This document shows positions 14,288-40,397 of a stretch of DNA of 40,397 bases, one piece after another (the first letter of the stretch is position 1; each line of letters opens with the position of its first letter). Location: the IMG/VR virus record IMGVR_UViG_2541047757_000012; one strand, given 5' to 3'. The translations under genes and the position numbers were made by a program. The stretch comes from a virus. Lineage: Duplodnaviria > Heunggongvirae > Uroviricota > Caudoviricetes. The notes under the pieces are model-generated. The model was given only the letters and a program-made list of their open reading frames with translations. It ran no database searches and had not been told where the DNA came from.

Positions 14288-15520
14288 TTACCCTTTACGG
14301 TTTGCCCAGAATTCAGCGTTTTGTTTGTTCAGGGAAGCGATACTGGTCATGCCCATGTTTAGGCGCTGTGCATCGCCGGTGGTGGCGCGGGTGTTTCGCC
14401 CTTTGGCAATCTCAGACACGGCATTAAACGCCATGTCGACCGATTGTTTCGGCAATTTGCGGATATCCGCATCACCGACTATCTGGCGAACCAGCGTTTT
14501 GTCAGCGGCGGACAGCACATCACGTTTGAACGCGGTCGGTTTCACCTTACGGCTCAGATCGATACCCGGAACGATAACTTCGGCACGATAAGCAGCGTCA
14601 CCGGTAATCGTGGTTTCCTCTTCGTCGTCCTCACCGTCGCCGGTAGGGTCTTTGTTATCTTTGCCGTCAGGCTTATCGTCGTTATCGCCCGTTGCAGTAC
14701 CTTCCAGCTTAGCCAGCAGGGCTTTGAGCAAGGTTTTGATATCGTCCTCGCCGTCGCCGGTTGGCTCTCCGCCCATTTCCGGCTTTTTGTCCGGCAATGG
14801 TTGTTGCGGTGAAAGATTAATGTTGAGGTTAACGCCGCTCGGCAGATCCCCTTCATCGCCCGTTACCGCCGCTGGCGCAGAGTCCAGCAGTTCGTTCATG
14901 GTGTCAGCATCACCCGTTTTGATGGCCGTGCGCATGCGGGTCCACCAGCTTTTCTTTTGATTTGCCATTGTGTCTTTGTCTCCAATTGCACAACGATTTC
15001 CGGCTCTGCCTTTAGGGACAAGAGCCACATGGTTTCCGGTAATATCGACCTGCTCGGCTTTTCCGGGTTCGGTCTGCTCGTACTCAGCGTCATAGCCGCA
15101 CGACACTTCGCGCAGACCATCTTCGATCAGCTGAATGGCGCTTTCGTCTTTGACGATAAGGTCAGCCAGCATCAAATCAGACTGATCACCAGTCCCGCGC
15201 CGAACGTTCTGAAGATGCCCGACCGCAAGCTCTTTCCAGTTCTCGGGGTTGACCAGCCGCACATTCCCGTTTTCATCTTCAGGATGCAGGATCGTGATGC
15301 TCATCCCTTCGAATGAGGCAAGCGTGGCCGGATGGAATACCTGCTCAGGAGAACGCGTGACGACTATTTCACCGAACTTATCGGGTTTCAGTTTTGGCAG
15401 GTCATCAGCACCATAGAGCTGCTTACCTGTTCGTCCTATCGGCACGTCTTTGCACAGCAACGAGCCGTCAGCCAGCTGATAGCGGGTTTCCCCCAGCCGG
15501 GTATTGAAAAAATATTTCAT
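14288..15520 (-). CDS. Putative prohead scaffold/protease-like protein
   Basis: 410-aa ORF after the MuF-like gene; C-terminal half acidic and low-complexity with repeated PTGDGEDD. Confidence 0.5.
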   Translation of the reverse strand: MKYFFNTRLGETRYQLADGSLLCKDVPIGRTGKQLYGADDLPKLKPDKFGEIVVTRSPEQVFHPATLASFEGMSITILHPEDENGNVRLVNPENWKELAVGHLQNVRRGTGDQSDLMLADLIVKDESAIQLIEDGLREVSCGYDAEYEQTEPGKAEQVDITGNHVALVPKGRAGNRCAIGDKDTMANQKKSWWTRMRTAIKTGDADTMNELLDSAPAAVTGDEGDLPSGVNLNINLSPQQPLPDKKPEMGGEPTGDGEDDIKTLLKALLAKLEGTATGDNDDKPDGKDNKDPTGDGEDDEEETTITGDAAYRAEVIVPGIDLSRKVKPTAFKRDVLSAADKTLVRQIVGDADIRKLPKQSVDMAFNAVSEIAKGRNTRATTGDAQRLNMGMTSIASLNKQNAEFWANRKG

Positions 15521-24454: not shown

Positions 24455-24610
24455 TTACTCCTCAGGTTCGTAAGCTGTGAAGACAGCGACCTCCGTCTGG
24501 CCGGTTCGGATTCGTACCTCGCAGAGGTCTTTCCTCGTTACCAGTGCCGTCACTATGACGGTTAAACAGATGACGATCAGGGCGACTAACATCGCCTTTT
24601 GCTGCTTCAT
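24455..24610 (-). CDS. hok: Hok/Gef-family type I toxin
   Basis: 51 aa MKQQKAMLVALIVICLTVIVTALVTRKDLCEVRIRTGQTEVAVFTAYEPEE, near-identical to HokD/RelF as I recall it; SD AAGGAGAAG before the ATG at 24610. Confidence 0.8.
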   Translation of the reverse strand: MKQQKAMLVALIVICLTVIVTALVTRKDLCEVRIRTGQTEVAVFTAYEPEE

Positions 24611-24760
24611 AGCCTGCTTCTCCTTGCCTTTCGGCACGTAAGAGGCTAACCTAGATTTGCCGTTCATAGATTGAGCCTCAGATTAATGTTAAGCGTCTTG
24701 CCGGACGCGTAATGTTAACTGGGGCTTTTCTCTGTCTGCCTTACAGTGGCATGCCTGAGG
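24611..24760. promoter_or_regulatory. hok leader region, expected site of Sok-like antisense RNA and mok overlap
   Basis: Inverted repeat TCTGTCTGCC...GGCAGACAG at 24730-24770; in hok/sok loci the antisense RNA is encoded opposite the leader. Exact boundaries not determinable by eye. Confidence 0.35.
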
Positions 24761-24948
24761 CAGACAGCCTCAAGCACCCGCAGCAATCTTACCGACACCG
24801 ATAAGAAAACGCTATTTTTTATTGCCAGCACCTTCTATCCAGGCTAATTTATCTGCGTCAGAACGGCGCAATGCGCTCGCCTGAGATACGTTTACTTGCC
24901 ATGGTAACAACAGGTAACGGCAATTGTTGTTTCTGTTTTGTTTCCTTC

Positions 24949-32329: not shown

Positions 32330-32724
32330 CTGAATACCTTATTACTGGTTGTGTGAGAACTCCAGTATACCACCGAGCCTGAAGTGGTAAAAAGACAGGC
32401 GCACAACACGAAGGCGCATTTCCGGTATTCATAAAGAGTCGGTCTTGTCTGTTAAATTTAAATGGTGGGAGTGCGCCTCCGGTTGTAAATAACGACATTG
32501 CTATGTGTAGTCTTTGGCGGCATCAGTTCTACTCCGTGGCTGCCCTGCCGCCCCTTTTTAAAGTGAATTTTGTGATGCGGTGAATGCGGCTAAGCGCACG
32601 CGGCACAGTTAAAAGCATCAGTGTTATGGGTGGATTATCCGGCGTTAATTGTTAACTGGTTAACGTCACCTGGAGGCACCAGGCACCGCATCGACAAAAT
32701 TCATTTGTAAAAATGGAGATAATT

Positions 32725-33565: not shown

Positions 33566-36500
33566 ATGAGCACCGATAAACAAGTTTACCCACTGTATTA
33601 CGAAGCAAAAAATGACAAAGTAAGAAAACGTCTCGGTATTAAAGGCGGTTTCTACTGGGCTGAAGCGAAAAAATTATCCATTGCCATCTCCCGTGGTGCT
33701 GTTGCGATTGACGATGCTGGCTACGATGAAGATGACTTTAAAAAACCTGTTCGCGTCAATTTGCCCGTTGTTGATGACCTTCCACCAGAAGGCGTATTTG
33801 ATACGGAATTCTGCAACCGTTACGAAAAAGGCGGGGAAGATGGCATCACAATGGTATTTATCGCGCCCTCATCCTCTGCGCAGGACAAACCAGCCAGCAC
33901 TGACAATACCAATGTTAATGGCGAAGACATGACGGAGATTGAGGAGAATATGCTACTCCCGATTTCCGGTCAGGAGCTGCCCATTCGCTGGCTTGCTCAA
34001 CACGGCAGCGAAAAACCGGTAACGCACGTTTCACGCGACGAACTACAGGCATTACACATTGCACGAGCTGAAGAACTACCAGCAGTTACTGCCCTGGCTA
34101 TTTCGCACAAAACCAGCCTGCTCGACCCACTGGAACTTCGCGACCTCCACAAACTGGTTCGCGACACTGACAAAGTTTTCCCTAATCCCGTTAATTCCAG
34201 TCTGGGATTAATGACTGCTTTTTTCGAAGCATACCTGGACGCTGACTACACCGATCGCGGCCTGCTGACAAAAGAGTGGATGAAAGGAAATCGTGTTTCA
34301 CGCATCACCCGCACGGCTTCCGGTGCTAATGCTGGCGGTGGGAACAAAACCGATCGCAATCCGAATTTAGTACACACCCTCGACACACTGGATGTGGAGA
34401 TTGCAGCAGCCACACTTCCGATGGATTTTAATATTTATGAAATTCCGGGCAGCGTTTATCGTCGCGCAAAAGAAGTAGTCCTGAACAAAGAAAGTCCGTT
34501 CAAAGAATGGTCCGCAGCACTTCGTGCAACCCCGGGTATTCTGGACTATTCCCGCGCCGCTATTTTTGCACTTATCCGAAGCGCACACCCTGAATTTTAT
34601 CACTACCCGGGACGCCTTCAGGGGTATATCAACGCCTATTTGACGGAAACTGATCACGAGAACCCCAGCAAGGAAACTCTCACAGCTGCCCGGCATACGC
34701 CGGAAAAAGATATCCTGGAAGAAATTAACCGCGAGGTGGTTACTGAGCGTGAAACAGAAGAAGAAAAACCACAACCATCTGACGCAATGGCAGGTGAACA
34801 GGCAACAACTGAAACAATGGAACCGGATACAACTGAACATGGCCAGAACGCGCAGTCGCTGGATGCTCAGTCGCAGGTGAGTTCCGCTAACCAAGTAAAA
34901 GTCACCGCTGACGAAGTAAACAAAATTATGCAGGCAGCCAATATCAGCCAGCCTGACGCCGATAAGTTACTTGCTGTATCGCGTGGTGAATTTGTTGAGG
35001 GGATTAGCGACCCTAATGATCCGAAATGGGTCAAGGGGATCCAGACTCGCGATTCTGTGAACCAGAACCAGCATGAATCGGAACGGAACGACCAAAAAGC
35101 GGAACAAAACAGCCCAAATGCGCGACAAAATGAACCAGAAGCGCAACAGGAACCGGAAAAAGTCTGCGCCGCCTGCGGTCAGACTGACGGGGATAACTGC
35201 CCTGACTGTGGTGCGGTAATGGGCGACGCAACATACCAGGAAACATTCGATGAAGAGAATCAGGTTGAAGCTAAGGAAAATGATCCGGAGGAAATGGAAG
35301 GCGCTGAACATCCGCACAAGGAGAACGCTGGCAACCATCCGCATCACGATTACAGTGATGAAACTGGTGAAGCGTCAGCTCCTGTAGCAACTGAAATCAT
35401 GTGGCCGTCATATTTCGAGCCAGGCCGCTATGAAAACCTCCCGAACGAGGTTTATCACTCCGCCAACGGAATAAGCAGCACGATGCTGAAGGATGCCCGT
35501 ATCAGCCTGATGTATTACCACGGGCGGCACATTGCCGGAACTATTCCGAACGAGGAAAGTGATGCACTGCTGCGTGGGCGGATCATTCACAGTTATGTTC
35601 TGGAAACGGATAAATTCGCTGATGAATATGTCATTCCGGTACCGGTTCCTGAATATGTGGTTACTACTTCTAACGAACTGATCGCCATCATTAAAAAACA
35701 CAATGCCAGTCTGCCAGCACTGATGACACCAGAGCAGATGAAAGAGTGGATCGAAAGCTACAACAGCACTCTTATACAGCCACTGTCTGTAAGTGCTGGG
35801 GGCGAAGAAACAGGCATCCTTTACGGTTCGCTTCCGGTGGAATTTCGGCGTATTCCTGAGGGGGAAAAACATACAGCATCAGCAATGAAAGCCTGTATTA
35901 AAGAATACAACGCAAGCCTCCCTCCTCTGTTGAAAACCAGTGGAGCACGGGAGCAGCTTCTGGATCAAATTGAAACTGTAGACCCAGAACTGGCAAAAAA
36001 AGAACGTGCTAAATCTTTGCCTTACAACATCAGTGGCACAAAAGAGCAATTAACCGAAATCGCACGGAAAATTCGCCCGGAACTGGTGACACTGGAGGAC
36101 TGGCAAAAACGCCAGCAAGAAGAAAACGCCGGGAAAACGTTTATCAGTCTGGATATGTATGAACAGGCAAAAAATATTCACGCGGCACTGCAAAACAATA
36201 CCGATGCAGCAAGGCTACTCAACCACCCGGATCGCAAATCTGAAATCAGCTATTTCGGGTTTGATGAAGAAACCGGGCTGGAAATCAGGGTCCGTCCTGA
36301 TATCGAAATCCGGCTGCCATACGAAAGCATTTGCGCTGACGTGAAGTCAGTCAGCCTCGGTTATGTGCGGCAGGAACGACTTAAAGATCGCCTGCACCGT
36401 GAAATTATTGAGCGTGATTATCACCTCAGCGCCGCAATGTATTGCGATGTGGCAAACCTGGACAAATTTTTCTGGATCTTCGTCAACAAAGATGCTGGCT

Positions 36501-36691
36501 ATCACTGGGTGGCTGTCGTGGAAGCCTCGCAGGAACTCCTGGAACTTGGTCGACAGGAGTATCGCCGGACGCTACGCCAGATAAACGAAGCCCTAGAGAC
36601 AAACAACTGGCCAGCACCGATTACCGAAAGTTATACCGACGAATTAAACGACTTTGATCTTCGTCGTCTTGAAGCACTGCATCTGGCTTAA
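33566..36691 (+). CDS. RecE-like exonuclease with long N-terminal extension
   Basis: 1041 aa; C-terminal third has PD-(D/E)xK-like features (...RVRPDIEIRLPYESICADVKSV...); followed by a coupled annealing-protein gene; internal Cys4 cluster CAACGQTDGDNCPDCG and acidic low-complexity region. Confidence 0.55.
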   Translation: MSTDKQVYPLYYEAKNDKVRKRLGIKGGFYWAEAKKLSIAISRGAVAIDDAGYDEDDFKKPVRVNLPVVDDLPPEGVFDTEFCNRYEKGGEDGITMVFIAPSSSAQDKPASTDNTNVNGEDMTEIEENMLLPISGQELPIRWLAQHGSEKPVTHVSRDELQALHIARAEELPAVTALAISHKTSLLDPLELRDLHKLVRDTDKVFPNPVNSSLGLMTAFFEAYLDADYTDRGLLTKEWMKGNRVSRITRTASGANAGGGNKTDRNPNLVHTLDTLDVEIAAATLPMDFNIYEIPGSVYRRAKEVVLNKESPFKEWSAALRATPGILDYSRAAIFALIRSAHPEFYHYPGRLQGYINAYLTETDHENPSKETLTAARHTPEKDILEEINREVVTERETEEEKPQPSDAMAGEQATTETMEPDTTEHGQNAQSLDAQSQVSSANQVKVTADEVNKIMQAANISQPDADKLLAVSRGEFVEGISDPNDPKWVKGIQTRDSVNQNQHESERNDQKAEQNSPNARQNEPEAQQEPEKVCAACGQTDGDNCPDCGAVMGDATYQETFDEENQVEAKENDPEEMEGAEHPHKENAGNHPHHDYSDETGEASAPVATEIMWPSYFEPGRYENLPNEVYHSANGISSTMLKDARISLMYYHGRHIAGTIPNEESDALLRGRIIHSYVLETDKFADEYVIPVPVPEYVVTTSNELIAIIKKHNASLPALMTPEQMKEWIESYNSTLIQPLSVSAGGEETGILYGSLPVEFRRIPEGEKHTASAMKACIKEYNASLPPLLKTSGAREQLLDQIETVDPELAKKERAKSLPYNISGTKEQLTEIARKIRPELVTLEDWQKRQQEENAGKTFISLDMYEQAKNIHAALQNNTDAARLLNHPDRKSEISYFGFDEETGLEIRVRPDIEIRLPYESICADVKSVSLGYVRQERLKDRLHREIIERDYHLSAAMYCDVANLDKFFWIFVNKDAGYHWVAVVEASQELLELGRQEYRRTLRQINEALETNNWPAPITESYTDELNDFDLRRLEALHLA

Positions 36692-37794
36692 TGGAGAACC
36701 TGACCATGCAAAATACCAATATCATCACGACAGAGCAGACACCAAATACCATTTCTGCCAGTAACACTATTTTTAACGTTCAGGCGTTGACGCAACTTCA
36801 GGCAGTAGCCGGGTTGATGTCACAGGCCACCGTCACAGTTCCCGATCACCTTCGCGGAAATCCTGCCGATTGCATGGCAATCATCATGCAAGCCATGCAA
36901 TGGGGCATGAACCCCTACGCTGTGGCTCAGAAAACACACCTGGTAAACGGAGTTCTGGGTTATGAAGCACAACTGGTTAACGCTGTGATCTCTAGCTCAA
37001 GTGCAATTGTAGGCCGCTTCCATTACAAGTACGAGGGAGACTGGGAGAAATGCTCTCGCACCCGAGTGGAGACCGTTAAGAAAACGGCCAAAGGAGGCGG
37101 AATCTATGAGAAAAAAGAAACGATCCCATGTTGGACCAGTGAAGATGAGTATGGTCTCTCAGTTCGAGTTGGTGCAGTTCTTCGCGGTGAAAGTGAGATT
37201 ACCTGGGGAGAACCGGTGTTTCTTTCCAGCGTGATTACGCGTAATTCTCCTTTATGGACCTCAAACCCGAAACAACAGCTCGCCTATCTGGCGTTGAAAT
37301 ACTGGGCTCGCCTTTATTGTCCTGACGTCATCCTGGGCGTGTATACCCCGGACGAACTGGAAGAGCCACAGGAAAAAATCATCAATCCTGTGCCGGTACA
37401 GAATTATAGCGAGGTAAGCGAGCAGCGAACAGAAACCATCGAACAGCGTATTGACGAAGCGTGGATTGATGAATTCCGGCAGCGTGTCGAAAGCGCGGCC
37501 ACGACTGAGGAAACCACTGCATTACGCCAAGAGATAGAGGATCAGAAAAACCAGATCGGCGAATTCTTTGCCGAGCTTAAAGGAAAAGTGGTTCGGCGTC
37601 ATCACCGTCTCAATGCTATTGCCAGTATCGAGAAGATGATAAATGACCTTCCTTCATCAGGTGATCCAGAAGCAGAACAAAAATTTACTGCTCTGGAAAA
37701 TACGCTGAATGCTGCCCGGCCACATCTGGGTGAATTATATGAGGCGTATAAAACGACACTGACAGATATGAAACCAGAATATATCGGCTCCTGA
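36691..37794 (+). CDS. Putative single-strand annealing protein (RecT/Red-beta-like)
   Basis: 367-aa ORF coupled (TAATG overlap) to the exonuclease gene; assignment is mainly by position. Confidence 0.45.
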   Translation: MENLTMQNTNIITTEQTPNTISASNTIFNVQALTQLQAVAGLMSQATVTVPDHLRGNPADCMAIIMQAMQWGMNPYAVAQKTHLVNGVLGYEAQLVNAVISSSSAIVGRFHYKYEGDWEKCSRTRVETVKKTAKGGGIYEKKETIPCWTSEDEYGLSVRVGAVLRGESEITWGEPVFLSSVITRNSPLWTSNPKQQLAYLALKYWARLYCPDVILGVYTPDELEEPQEKIINPVPVQNYSEVSEQRTETIEQRIDEAWIDEFRQRVESAATTEETTALRQEIEDQKNQIGEFFAELKGKVVRRHHRLNAIASIEKMINDLPSSGDPEAEQKFTALENTLNAARPHLGELYEAYKTTLTDMKPEYIGS

Positions 37795-37857: not shown

Positions 37858-38052
37858 ATGCGGTATGAAAAAGTCAAACCATGCCCTTTTTGTGGTTGTC
37901 CATCAGTAACGGTGAAAGCCATTTCAGGATATTACCGCGCGAAGTGTAACGGATGCGAATCCCGAACCGGCTATGGTGGAAGTGAAAAAGAAGCACTCGA
38001 ACGATGGAATAAACGAACCACTGGAAATAATAATGGAGGTGTTCATGTATAA
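37858..38052 (+). CDS. ralR: Restriction alleviation protein Lar / RalR toxin
   Basis: 64 aa MRYEKVKPCPFCGCPSVTVKAISGYYRAKCNGCESRTGYGGSEKEALERWNKRTTGNNNGGVHV, closely matching Rac Lar/RalR as I recall it; SD GAGAG before the ATG at 37858. Confidence 0.8.
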   Translation: MRYEKVKPCPFCGCPSVTVKAISGYYRAKCNGCESRTGYGGSEKEALERWNKRTTGNNNGGVHV

Positions 38053-38233
38053 AATTACCGCCACTATTGAAAAGGAAGGTGGCACTCCTACTAACTGGAC
38101 AAGGTACTCAAAAACAAAGTTAACCAAATCGGAATGCGAAAAAATGCTCTCGGGGAAAAAAGAAGCAGGCGTTTCCAGAGAGCAGAAAGTAAAGCTGATA
38201 AATTTTAATTGCGAGAAACTTCTGCCCTCGTGA
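38045..38233 (+). CDS. Hypothetical small protein
   Basis: ATG at 38045 preceded by GGAGG; overlaps the lar stop by 8 nt; 62 aa. Confidence 0.4.
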   Translation: MYKITATIEKEGGTPTNWTRYSKTKLTKSECEKMLSGKKEAGVSREQKVKLINFNCEKLLPS

Positions 38234-38333: not shown

Positions 38334-38621
38334 ATGGCAATGAATCTTGTGACACTCAAAACGTGGGGAAAACTCAGATATCCGGATAACCCACCATCAA
38401 TATCAACGCTGAGACGATGGGCAAGGAATGGAAACATTTATCCTGCACCTGAACTACACGGGAGGAGTTACAGGGTGGTTCCGGAGGCTTTCTATATCAA
38501 CCCAAATAAGGTTGATACCGATATAACACACCATCAGCCTAATGGGCGACAAGGGAGAGACAGTCCGTTACTGGAGAAGTTAAAACATGCAGCGGAAAAA
38601 ATACGATCCCAATTTGCCTAG
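38334..38621 (+). CDS. xis: Excisionase, lambda Xis-like
   Basis: N-terminal ...VTLKTWGKLRYPDNPPSISTLRRWARNGNIYPAPELHGRSYRVV... parallels lambda Xis; 3' end overlaps int. Second ATG at 38340 has better SD spacing. Confidence 0.7.
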   Translation: MAMNLVTLKTWGKLRYPDNPPSISTLRRWARNGNIYPAPELHGRSYRVVPEAFYINPNKVDTDITHHQPNGRQGRDSPLLEKLKHAAEKIRSQFA

Positions 38622-39663
38622 GAACTTAACATATCGAAGGAGGGACAAAGCATATTACTGGCGCAACCCTCTGACGAAAGAAGAATTTACACTAGGTAAA
38701 ATTTCAAGAAGAGATGCAATCGCGCAGGCAATTGAAGCAAATCATTATATATACAAAAACTACTCTCCTGCTGCCTTAATTGAAAAACTTAAAGGGTTCG
38801 ACTCATTTACTATGGCAGACTGGATTGAACGTTACAAAACGATTCTTATAAGGAGAAAAGTGTCCAGAAATACTTATAAAATTCGGGTAAATCAACTGGA
38901 GACAATAAAAGAAAAATTGGGAGAGATTTTACTGACAGAAATAACCACTCGCCATATTGCCGAGTTTCTTGATTTGTGGATTGAAGGAGGGAAAAACACA
39001 ATGGCAGGATCAATGCGTTCTGTGTTGTCTGATATGTTTCGTGAGGCCATTGTTGAAGGACGTATATCTCAAAATCCAGTAACGCCAACAAGAGCACCGA
39101 AAATAGTAGTTACAAGAGAACGACTGAAACTAAAGACATACAACTGCATCAGGGAGGCAGCAGATCAACTTCCGGCATGGTTCCCATTAGCTATGGATTT
39201 AGCCCTTGTAACAGGACAACGTCGCGAAGACATAACGAATATGCGGTTTAGTGATATTTATGATGATCGTCTCCACATCAGGCAAATTAAGACAGGAATG
39301 ATGATTGCTATCCCCCTGTCACTCAGCCTTCCTGTCGCTGGTCTACGGCTTGGTACAGTAGTTGAACAGTGCCGCCTGGTAAGCCGGGGAGATTATCTAA
39401 TCAGTGCCGGGATTAGAAAAAACAGCCCTGACGGCAGCATTCACCCGGATGGCCTGACAAAAAAATTTGTCGCAGCCAGAAAATTAACAGGTATCCAGTT
39501 CAGTGAAAACCCACCAACTTTTCACGAGATCAGAAGCCTGGCTGGACGATTGTACAAAGAAACATGTGGAGAAGAATTTGCTCAGCGTCTACTTGGCCAC
39601 ACATCGGAGAAGACAACAAAAATGTATCTTGATGAGAGAGAAAAAACGTACTTACTGCTCTGA
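38587..39663 (+). CDS. int: Integrase, lambda-family tyrosine recombinase
   Basis: 358 aa; C-terminal catalytic region ...[11 protein letters not shown]...[18 protein letters not shown] with conserved Tyr; overlaps xis; adjacent to the att region. Confidence 0.9.
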
Positions 39664-39740
39664 TTTTAACGTAAATGGATTGTTAAATGTATTTTGGTTG
39701 TGATATAACCAAAAAAGACCGGAATACAGAAATTCGAGTA

Positions 39741-39760
39741 AATTTCGGGGAATTTCGGGG
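39741..39760. repeat. Perfect tandem 10-bp repeat AATTTCGGGG x2 in the int-proximal att arm
   Basis: Read directly; possible arm-type Int/accessory-factor site. Confidence 0.5.
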
Positions 39761-39794
39761 AGACGCTTGCAACTGATTGATTTTAAATACAATT

Positions 39795-39897
39795 AAAAAA
39801 AGACCGAATACGATTCCTGTATTCGGTCCAGGGAAATGGCTCTTGGGAGAGAGCCGTGCGCTAAAAGTTGGCATTAATGCAGGCTTAGTTGCCTTGC
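39795..39897 (-). ncRNA. sdsR: sRNA SdsR (RyeB)-like host gene
   Basis: Minus-strand sequence GCAAGGCAACTAAGCCTGCATTAATGCC...GACCGAATACAGGAATCGTATTCGGTC + T7 matches my recollection of SdsR; sigma-S-like -10 CTATTCT upstream (about 39905-39911); terminal hairpin 39802-39828. Confidence 0.55.
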
Positions 39898-39984
39898 CCT
39901 TTAAGAATAGATGACGACGCCAGGTTTTCCAGTTTGCGTGCAAAATGGTCAATAAAAAGCGTGGTGGTCATCAGCTGAAATGTT

Positions 39985-40026
39985 AAAAACCGCCCGTTCT
40001 GGTGAAAGAACTGAGGCGGTTTTTTT
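39985..40026. terminator. Bidirectional intrinsic terminator downstream of yebY
   Basis: A5, stem CCGCC...GGCGG (39990-40019), T7. Confidence 0.55.
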
Positions 40027-40055
40027 ATTGGAAATCAAAAGGCTATTTTAGGTAA

Positions 40056-40397
40056 TTAACAGAGTTTTTCAGCTCGTTCTATAAACGGTGCCAGACTCAT
40101 TTTTTCGCCGGGATTGTTAGGATCATCAATCTGAATCACCGAAATGGGTTGGGCTTTAGTCTTCCCACTGGCAACTTCCTTTTGTGCGATATCGTTTAAA
40201 GGATACTGCACGAGGGTACTTGGGTTGATGACATACAAAGCATTACCCGGTCGGCAAGTCAGCATCACCTCTTCGCGATTAAACGCCCATTTGTCTTTAC
40301 CCACTTCAAAACGGCTGACGGTAATCACCTGCGGTGCAGCCAGCGCCGCTGCAGAACTGGTGAGTAACAGAAACGCCAGAATACTTTTTTTCATCAT
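40056..40397 (-). CDS. yebY: Host periplasmic protein YebY-like (signal peptide)
   Basis: 113-aa ORF ending exactly at the window edge; [37 protein letters not shown]... matches my recollection of E. coli YebY; not phage-like. Confidence 0.55.

Follow-up and report, generated by a model that had tools for sequence, protein, structure and literature searches.

The right-hand end of a 40,397-nucleotide stretch of Caudoviricetes DNA (IMG/VR virus record IMGVR_UViG_2541047757_000012, the whole of which we call the window) is the subject of this article. Our central conclusion, which we hold with high confidence, is that this end, around positions 39664 to 40026, is the int-proximal junction of a temperate myovirus prophage of about 42 to 47 kb. 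It entered the host chromosome through lambda-type site-specific recombination, its target being the Rho-independent terminator of a small RNA (sRNA) gene, sdsR, also known as ryeB. SdsR is an abundant, RpoS-dependent Hfq sRNA; ompD, tolC and mutS are among its reported targets, and RyeA (or SraC) is its antisense antagonist (PMC6610125, PMC3333887). The phage, as we describe below, rebuilds the end of one of these RNAs and replaces the beginning of the other.

The initial annotation of this DNA had read the minus strand to the right of int as SdsR, at 39795-39897 and with an intact terminator, followed by yebY. An Rfam scan bears this out: family RF00111 matches 39795-39894 on the minus strand with 118.1 bits against a gathering score of 38, over model positions 1-100 of 100. 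The gene has a Rho-independent terminator and lies downstream of yebY on the same strand, the arrangement that serves as the synteny rule for sdsR (PMC3333887). Its neighbor yebY (40056-40397, minus) encodes 113 aa with the Pfam domain DUF2511 (152 bits); it is the conserved host gene upstream of sdsR and is annotated as yebY in all matching genomes. The terminator, called as a terminator-like site, consists of a stem of 11 bp (39801-39829) with a loop of 7 nt, and seven T follow it. All of the features listed in the initial annotation were found where it had put them or no more than 3 nt away.

That annotation had also placed the boundary between prophage and host in the 3′ terminator of the sRNA. 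Genome comparison and a three-way alignment both put it there. We compared an 898-bp junction query with 5426 complete E. coli genomes. Every one of the 5426 matches the yebY side, from window position 39794 rightwards; 228 of them share the int side as well. In 5189 of the genomes the K-12-type empty site (pphA, sdsR/ryeA, yebY) is uninterrupted; in about 237 (4.4%) it is interrupted, nearly always by this type of integrase. A lysogen, strain AVS0790, shows the same gene order as the window at both of its ends and supplies the other end of the prophage. There the order is pphA, far junction, pinE, tail genes and so on to recE, recT, ralR, xis, int, sdsR and yebY. The AVS0790 prophage is about 42.5 kb long, and its far junction lies about 2.8 kb past the left end of the window.

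The junction could then be defined from the empty site of K-12 (L001), the far junction of AVS0790 (L003), int-side junctions (the window itself and L004) and the attP of a free phage, PP818812.1 (L005). The empty site reads ...ACAGATAAAAAGAGACCGAACACGATTCCTGTATTCGGTCCAGG..., the far junction of AVS0790 ...AAAAAGAGACCGAACACGATTCCTGTTTTCGTCAACAAAC... and the junction in the window ...ACAATTAAAAAAAGACCGAATACGATTCCTGTATTCGGTCCAGG.... The attP deduced from them, AATTAAAAAAAGACCGAATACGATTCCTGTTTTCGTCAAC, is found exactly in the 47.5-kb free-phage record PP818812.1, with the int-side arm of the window on one side of the core and the far-junction arm of AVS0790 on the other. Taken together, these sequences delimit a region of similarity between attP and attB at 39795-39825 (AAAAAAAGACCGAATACGATTCCTGTATTCG), which is the terminator hairpin of sdsR. 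Within it attP and the E. coli attB differ at two positions, C/T to the left of a segment ACGATTCCTGT and A/T to its right. At the int-side junction these positions are occupied by a phage T (39809) and a host A (39821), at the far junction by a host C on the left and a phage T on the right. Since phage and host bases are swapped between the two junctions, strand exchange must have occurred within ACGATTCCTGT (39810-39820), 11 bp that hold the hairpin loop GATTCCT (39812-39818) between the perfect inverted repeats GACCGAATAC and GTATTCGGTC. The same pattern recurs in nine more far junctions and in all int-side junctions from IMG/VR, among the matches listed. Both junctions are thus attP/attB hybrids with a common short core; the alignment with an empty site and with the other prophage end, proposed in the initial annotation as a check, defines the att core and confines the crossover to 11 bp. 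The phage side of the junction, 39664-39809, is the int-proximal, P′-like arm of attP and runs contiguously into the core and the distal arm in PP818812.1. Positions 39794-39809 match the empty site because attP and attB are alike there; the stretch is still phage-derived.

The core pattern occurs only once in the 40.4-kb window, even with up to three mismatches allowed, leaving no partner att copy there; the true second copy lies beyond the left end, adjoining pphA, where it is seen in AVS0790. At the pphA-side end of the prophage in the source strain we would predict ...GAGACCGAACACGATTCCTGTTTTCGTCAAC.... The terminator hairpin serves as the core. Its arms, GACCGAAYAC and the inverse, are the probable core-type sites for Int, with GATTCCT, the loop of 7 nt, as the probable overlap region. 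The geometry of GACCGAATAC, GATTCCT and GTATTCGGTC is as expected for core-type sites around a 7-bp overlap, and a putative overlap is how we treat the loop. As for PP818812.1, it is named 'Actinobacillus phage vB_Apl-pPE4', with A. pleuropneumoniae as its host; its integrase is 97% identical to the E. coli prophage integrase and its attP fits the sdsR terminator of enterobacteria. We regard this host assignment as doubtful.

What has integration done to SdsR? The body of the gene and the 5′ half of its terminator are host DNA, and the 3′ half of the stem with the U-tract (39795-39811) is phage DNA. The RNA of the lysogen is the same as that of K-12 up to the loop, and its last 17 nt or so are encoded by the phage. 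In this tail one G.U pair becomes A-U and UCUUUUUAU becomes UUUUUUU; the stem is perfect. The fold is that of K-12, with a predicted terminator hairpin of -15.8 kcal/mol in both, and the sequence upstream of sdsR also matches K-12 as judged by eye, with 98.5% identity over the whole of the yebY side. A full SdsR is kept in the lysogen because attP holds a near-copy of the left half of the hairpin together with the A-run. The suggestion that phage DNA reconstitutes the terminator has therefore held up, on the alignment as on the unchanged folding energy.

A second suggestion fared differently. To the left of the junction lies a near-repeat, AAAAAAGACCGGAATACA (39711-39728, plus), of the core-side copy AAAAAAGACCGAATAC at 39796-39811, and a perfect tandem repeat lies between the two. 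The initial annotation had connected the near-repeat and the tandem with integration and with the phage-host boundary. One could go further and regard the near-repeat and the copy at the 3′ end of the sRNA (39795-39811) as two att copies, or as a target duplication, with the boundary of the element between them. A repeat search does find an exact direct repeat of 11 nt common to both copies (AAAAAAGACCG), which stretches to about 17 nt with one indel, and one of the copies sits at the phage/host boundary. Both copies are nevertheless present in the attP of free phage PP818812.1 and in a circular Salmonella phage record, the real partner copy adjoins pphA at the far end, and the 85 bp between the copies hold conserved elements of the phage arm. 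The three-way alignment and the free-phage attP refute the duplication, to which we give virtually no chance. Both the near-repeat and the tandem are found 55-105 bp into the phage DNA, and neither is altered in the intact attP of PP818812.1; diverged phages have them too. They are kept, for instance, along with the core, in the circular Salmonella SopE phage record ZC-S1_prp, whose int is about 73% identical at the DNA level. Chance was considered as an origin of the repeats and is ruled out by shuffling and by conservation: a local alignment of 39664-39790 with the core segment scores 30, which none of 2000 dinucleotide shuffles reached. The shuffle test was post hoc, and conservation in the attP arms of diverged phages is the stronger evidence.

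For that conservation we drew on a wider collection. Scanning IMG/VR viral contigs with the core DNA gave at least 120 loci; with the loci collected earlier there are at least 127 occurrences of the core, with at least 99 distinct 125-nt left flanks and at least 44 distinct phage distal arms. (A search of genome contigs with a single Int protein found two close relatives only.) Eighteen non-redundant arms of the window type (less than 90% identical), among the matches listed, were aligned. Their sequences have diverged except for a series of islands that come in a fixed order: TGTGRTATAA (39699-39708), CCGRATAY, a triple repeat, YAA-N4-YTGAW, and the A-run with the core.

The near-repeat is the second of these islands, a conserved core-like block of the phage arm, 7-10 nt downstream of the invariant TGnTATAAC; its CCGRATAY, kept in all 18 diverged arms, is similar to the core-type half-site GACCGAAYAC. 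The block may be an additional site for Int, of a core-type-like kind, or a promoter-proximal or 5′-transcribed element. Could it instead be a non-functional scar, inherited from an ancestral phage that, through imprecise excision or tandem integration, had acquired a piece of the sdsR terminator? The block does resemble the core half-site, A-run included, and in one lineage (L089) the near-repeat matches the left half of the core perfectly over 17 nt. The copies, moreover, can recombine. Against this, CCGRATAY holds a fixed position although the spacers have diverged beyond recognition, and it is also found in a second class of arm (GACAGGATAT). Were the block neutral, we would expect it to have decayed like the spacers, and for this reason we consider a scar quite unlikely. 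The recombination just mentioned is seen in L066 (IMGVR_UViG_2728369554_000022, around 8555), where a precise 85-bp deletion, equivalent to window 39722-39806, fuses the near-repeat to the core copy. It takes out the triple repeat and the site that resembles one for integration host factor (IHF), and would probably lock that prophage in place.

We take the remaining islands together with the recombination genes. The int gene (38587-39663, plus) encodes a lambda-type tyrosine integrase of 358 aa, with PF00589 Phage_integrase (61.6 bits), PF22022 Phage_int_M (41.3) and PF09003 Arm-DNA-bind_1 (29.8 against a cut-off of 22). The start of int is overlapped by xis (38334-38621, plus), whose 95-aa product matches PF07825 Excisionase-like (52.1 bits against a cut-off of 23) and is annotated 'excisionase' in the colinear AVS0790 prophage. 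The initial annotation was right that AATTTCGGGG is perfectly repeated in tandem (39741-39750 and 39751-39760); its count of two fell short, as these are the last two units of an array of three tandem repeats of 10-11 bp at 39730-39760 on the plus strand (AAATTCGAGT, AAATTTCGGGG and AATTTCGGGG). TTCG is invariant in each of the three across the 18 arms. In the at least 44 distinct distal arms, which come from many lineages, the motif, WWTTYCGNN, is virtually confined to two places, +115/116 and +136/138 from the core, and its orientation is the same throughout. A match to the IHF consensus, AATCAATCAGTTG (WATCAANNNNTTR), occupies 39770-39782 (minus) in the interval from the array to the core; it is one of only two in the 40.4-kb window with both strands scanned (the other is at 14729) and partly conserved as the YAA-N4-YTGAW of the alignment. 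Measured from the core, the triple array is at 52-85 bp on the int side, the IHF-like site at 33-45 bp and the two distal-arm sites at about 120-150 bp.

We read the tandem as part of a set of putative arm-type Int sites, because these positions parallel those of P′1-P′3, H′ and P2/P1 in lambda. The triple array would be the equivalent of P′1-P′3, the IHF-like site a candidate H′ between array and core, and the distal arm would hold two more arm-type copies. It is their conservation and geometry that are observed; binding by Int is what we would predict from them. The tandem AATTTCGGGG and the TGTGATATAAC block to its left might instead be operators and promoter of a phage or host regulator that has nothing to do with recombination, or Xis sites. 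The repeats do lie directly downstream of a promoter-like element, a possible place for an operator, and the arm-site role is itself read from sequence. Yet in many lineages the distal arm has this motif twice more, at set distances and with its orientation unchanged; the positions run parallel to lambda P′1-P′3 and P1/P2, and Int carries an arm-binding domain. We think it very unlikely that such roles replace that of arm-type Int sites, although the two are not mutually exclusive and both could hold together.

The other RNA of the locus is a different story. Rfam RF00101 (RyeA/SraC) matches 39791-39935 on the plus strand with 179.1 bits against 37, through a model that covers only the part overlapping sdsR; the retained part of ryeA (sraC) runs from 39791 to 40027, to a bidirectional terminator at 39985-40027. 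RyeA, 272 nt long, has a terminator of its own at which it stops, and the fragment that holds its promoter extends from +341 to +132 relative to the sdsR start (Choi et al., PMC6610125). From this mapping and the terminator at 39985-40027, the native RyeA should start about 40 nt to the pphA side of the sdsR 3′ end (about 1960 in the K-12 sequence L001). In the window the 5′ portion of K-12 RyeA and its promoter (L001, about 1925-2000) are replaced by the phage arm, 39664-39794, and in AVS0790 the native copy is found at the far junction, adjoining pphA. The prophage thus moves the native RyeA promoter, which is on the pphA side of the crossover, about 42 kb away, and with it the first 50-60 nt or so of RyeA and pphA go to the far end. 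In AVS0790 (L003:12149-12614) the displaced promoter points into the distal arm of the phage, towards pinE, and pphA is now directly downstream of pinE on the same strand. Normally pphA is expressed via read-through from the sdsR promoter (Choi et al., PMC6610125); in the lysogen its expression may have shifted to read-through from the phage.

The initial annotation had stated that insertion separates the RyeA promoter from its target. The displacement to the pphA side is real; the statement was incomplete, as the phage arm carries a candidate substitute. This is TGTGATATAAC, an invariant extended -10-like block (TGnTATAAC) at 39699-39709 on the plus strand, with TTGTTA 18 bp upstream (39680-39685), which together would form a promoter directed towards sdsR. 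The extended -10-like element proper is TGATATAAC at 39701-39709, and TGTGRTATAA is the most conserved island in the 18 arms. From the candidate -10 to the core is 93 nt, versus 56 nt in K-12, a difference of +37. In Shigella and Salmonella the SraC -10 box lies about 35 bp further upstream and the RNA is about 35 nt longer (Frohlich et al., PMC3333887), and one Shigella flexneri genome carries the same arm next to sdsR. In that genome (SFBU1023, L007:3001-4240) the integrase frame is split into two open reading frames and the sdsR region has several indels, defects that could come from decay of the prophage or from a low-quality assembly.

From the invariant -10-like element and a geometry that fits the published longer SraC, we infer a hybrid RyeA with a phage promoter: the element would drive an antisense transcript of about 310 nt with a predicted start at about 39716. 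Antisense transcription would then probably be replaced rather than abolished. A simpler outcome is that the prophage does abolish RyeA, its promoter separated and no replacement provided, leaving SdsR unopposed. The native promoter and the RyeA 5′ end are indeed on the pphA side, and lysogeny by PhiW104 is described in PMC7380047 as lowering ryeA and raising ryeB expression. The same source speaks of a 'modified' 5′ portion of ryeA and of decreased, not lost, transcription. The invariant element of the arm points at sdsR, the Shigella SraC longer by about 35 nt (PMC3333887) fits the +37 nt of the arm, which is present in a Shigella genome, and read-through from int could supply antisense RNA, no plus-strand terminator having been called between int and sdsR. 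Complete loss of RyeA we regard as unlikely.

The K-12 empty site between pphA and sdsR where the RyeA promoter maps (L001:1918-1962) looks like the relic of an integrase 3′ end. The pattern CTGGAC-N17/18-TATGGTT is common to the native pphA-side flanks of several hosts (L030, L078, L080, L086, L100, L114) and to the final codons of integrases that form a second class targeting sdsR, whose arms (class B) are exemplified by L009 and L073. The relics translate as KSLDDRGAEYGMVW, and that of K-12 as KTLDSDSRVCVMVD, versus LDARGAEYVMV* in the phage genes. The K-12 flank aligns with L009 over 64 nt with a score of 31, reached in none of 500 shuffles. A window-type arm aligned with the same K-12 flank scores 16, equalled or exceeded in 255 of 500 shuffles and so not significant; clear homology to the native flank is confined to the second arm class. 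The CTGGAC and TATGGTT columns coincide with the inferred -35 and -10 of RyeA, and the native promoter may accordingly be an exapted relic of the last 14 or so codons of a second-class integrase gene.

A broader idea we offer tentatively and at somewhat less than an even chance. RyeA, the antisense partner of SdsR, has been described as an antitoxin. Its promoter and 5′ end might be a swappable, phage-borne module, the native promoter of E. coli and its relatives itself being an exapted integrase relic. The near-repeat would then be promoter-proximal, or an extra Int site that couples occupancy by Int to antisense transcription. On this idea the int-side attP arm of every phage that targets the sdsR terminator would have a conserved promoter-like element aimed at the core, so that a new RyeA 5′ end would come with every integration.

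Several points weigh against the account given so far. The far junction of this particular genome lies outside the window, and the crossover interval is taken from other lysogens of the same phage type, AVS0790 and the nine IMG/VR far junctions. A promoter scan made no call at the extended -10-like element, position 6 of which is a C. The near-repeat, at about -87 to -104 from the loop centre, is further from the core than the lambda attP boundary at about +82. In the predicted hybrid RyeA, neither the minimum free energy fold nor the centroid fold has any pairing of the near-repeat with the core hairpin, and the local hairpin is kept; an RNA-pairing role is thus not supported. Binding, excision and transcription are, for this phage, predictions from sequence. 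Finally, parts of our attP anatomy may already have been described in the paper that defined the target in 2008 (Balbontin et al., J Bacteriol 190:4075).

How does this system compare with others? With lambda it has in common an Int with an N-terminal arm-binding domain, a lambda-type Xis and a core of inverted repeats around a 7-nt spacer, as well as three putative arm-type repeats on the int side and two in the distal arm, with an IHF consensus between the repeats and the core. The arm and core sequences themselves differ, the target is an sRNA terminator where that of lambda is the gal-bio intergenic attB, and there are extra conserved blocks (CCGRATAY and TGTGRTATAA) beyond the lambda-equivalent boundary of the arm. 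As in integration at the 3′ ends of genes for tRNA, tmRNA and other structured RNAs, a hairpin in the 3′ end of an RNA gene is attB and the phage copy restores the gene. Unlike those cases, the locus is a bidirectional one, where SdsR is kept, the RyeA 5′ end and promoter are swapped and pphA is uncoupled.

The closest parallel is PhiW104, which is described in PMC7380047, citing Balbontin et al. 2008, as using the final 23 bp of ryeB for attachment, a site inside ryeA, with ryeA altered. As far as that description goes, the att core lies in the last 23 bp or so of ryeB, in its terminator, and lysogeny replaces the 5′ part of ryeA, as here; the att core of our prophage (39795-39825, with the crossover at 39810-39820) fits the PhiW104-type definition. 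Here, in contrast, we deal with an E. coli host, in which two positions of the core distinguish attB from attP, and with a prophage that combines a Rac-like early region and a myovirus structural module of the EcoM-606R2-like kind. The initial annotation had named sdsR/ryeA as an insertion hotspot, and the literature agrees (PMC7380047, PMC3333887, PMC3603311): sdsR/ryeA is an attachment site and a recurrent site of insertion (PMC3333887), and ryeB is cited as a known phage target in a discussion of hairpin-bearing sRNAs as targets (Bobay et al., PMC3603311). An island catalogue has 'RyeB' as a target label, and the same core is used by many enterobacterial phages. The mechanism is textbook, the target was published in 2008, and the finding, largely ordinary in this respect, mainly confirms known biology in E. 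coli. To this the window adds a further member, from E. coli, for which we can give the exact att core, the limits of the crossover and the anatomy of attP.

Elsewhere in the prophage, recE (33566-36691) and a recT-like gene (36691-37794) belong to a Rac-like early region. The myovirus structural module to which this region is joined is about 97% identical to Escherichia phages vB_EcoM-606R2 and 611R5. Three known regulatory RNAs are carried on the prophage, in the Rac-like early region: RalA, the antitoxin of RalR (38051-38229, minus, 216.7 bits), sok (24605-24779, minus, 112 bits) and DicF (32502-32553, plus, 60.9 bits). Two of the genomes that matched the junction query depart from the usual layout. 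In the O45:H2 strain FWSEC0003 (NZ_CP031916.1, 3100000-3165294; L002, hit H1) the int-sdsR-yebY junction is 99.9% identical to the window. At a distance of 35-40 kb leftwards, however, its DNA is normal chromosome (the paa operon, ydbD, ynbA-D) with no such prophage, which suggests a prophage-mediated rearrangement or a far shorter element. In NZ_AP027783.1 (hit H30) yebY-side homology starts only at window 39882, in the 5′ part of sdsR. This breakpoint differs from the att core, and the record has a second matching place.

For those who annotate this family of prophages, the att core, the crossover interval and the attP anatomy should be useful, and the internal near-repeat is unfit as a prophage boundary. 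For the host, the prophage keeps SdsR and alters what surrounds it: the 3′ U-tract of SdsR is longer, the RyeA promoter and 5′ end are swapped, and the read-through from sdsR to pphA is severed. Effects on the levels of SdsR, RyeA and pphA would be expected from these changes. About 4% of complete E. coli genomes are affected, and in them the regulation of SdsR, RyeA and pphA may differ from that of K-12.

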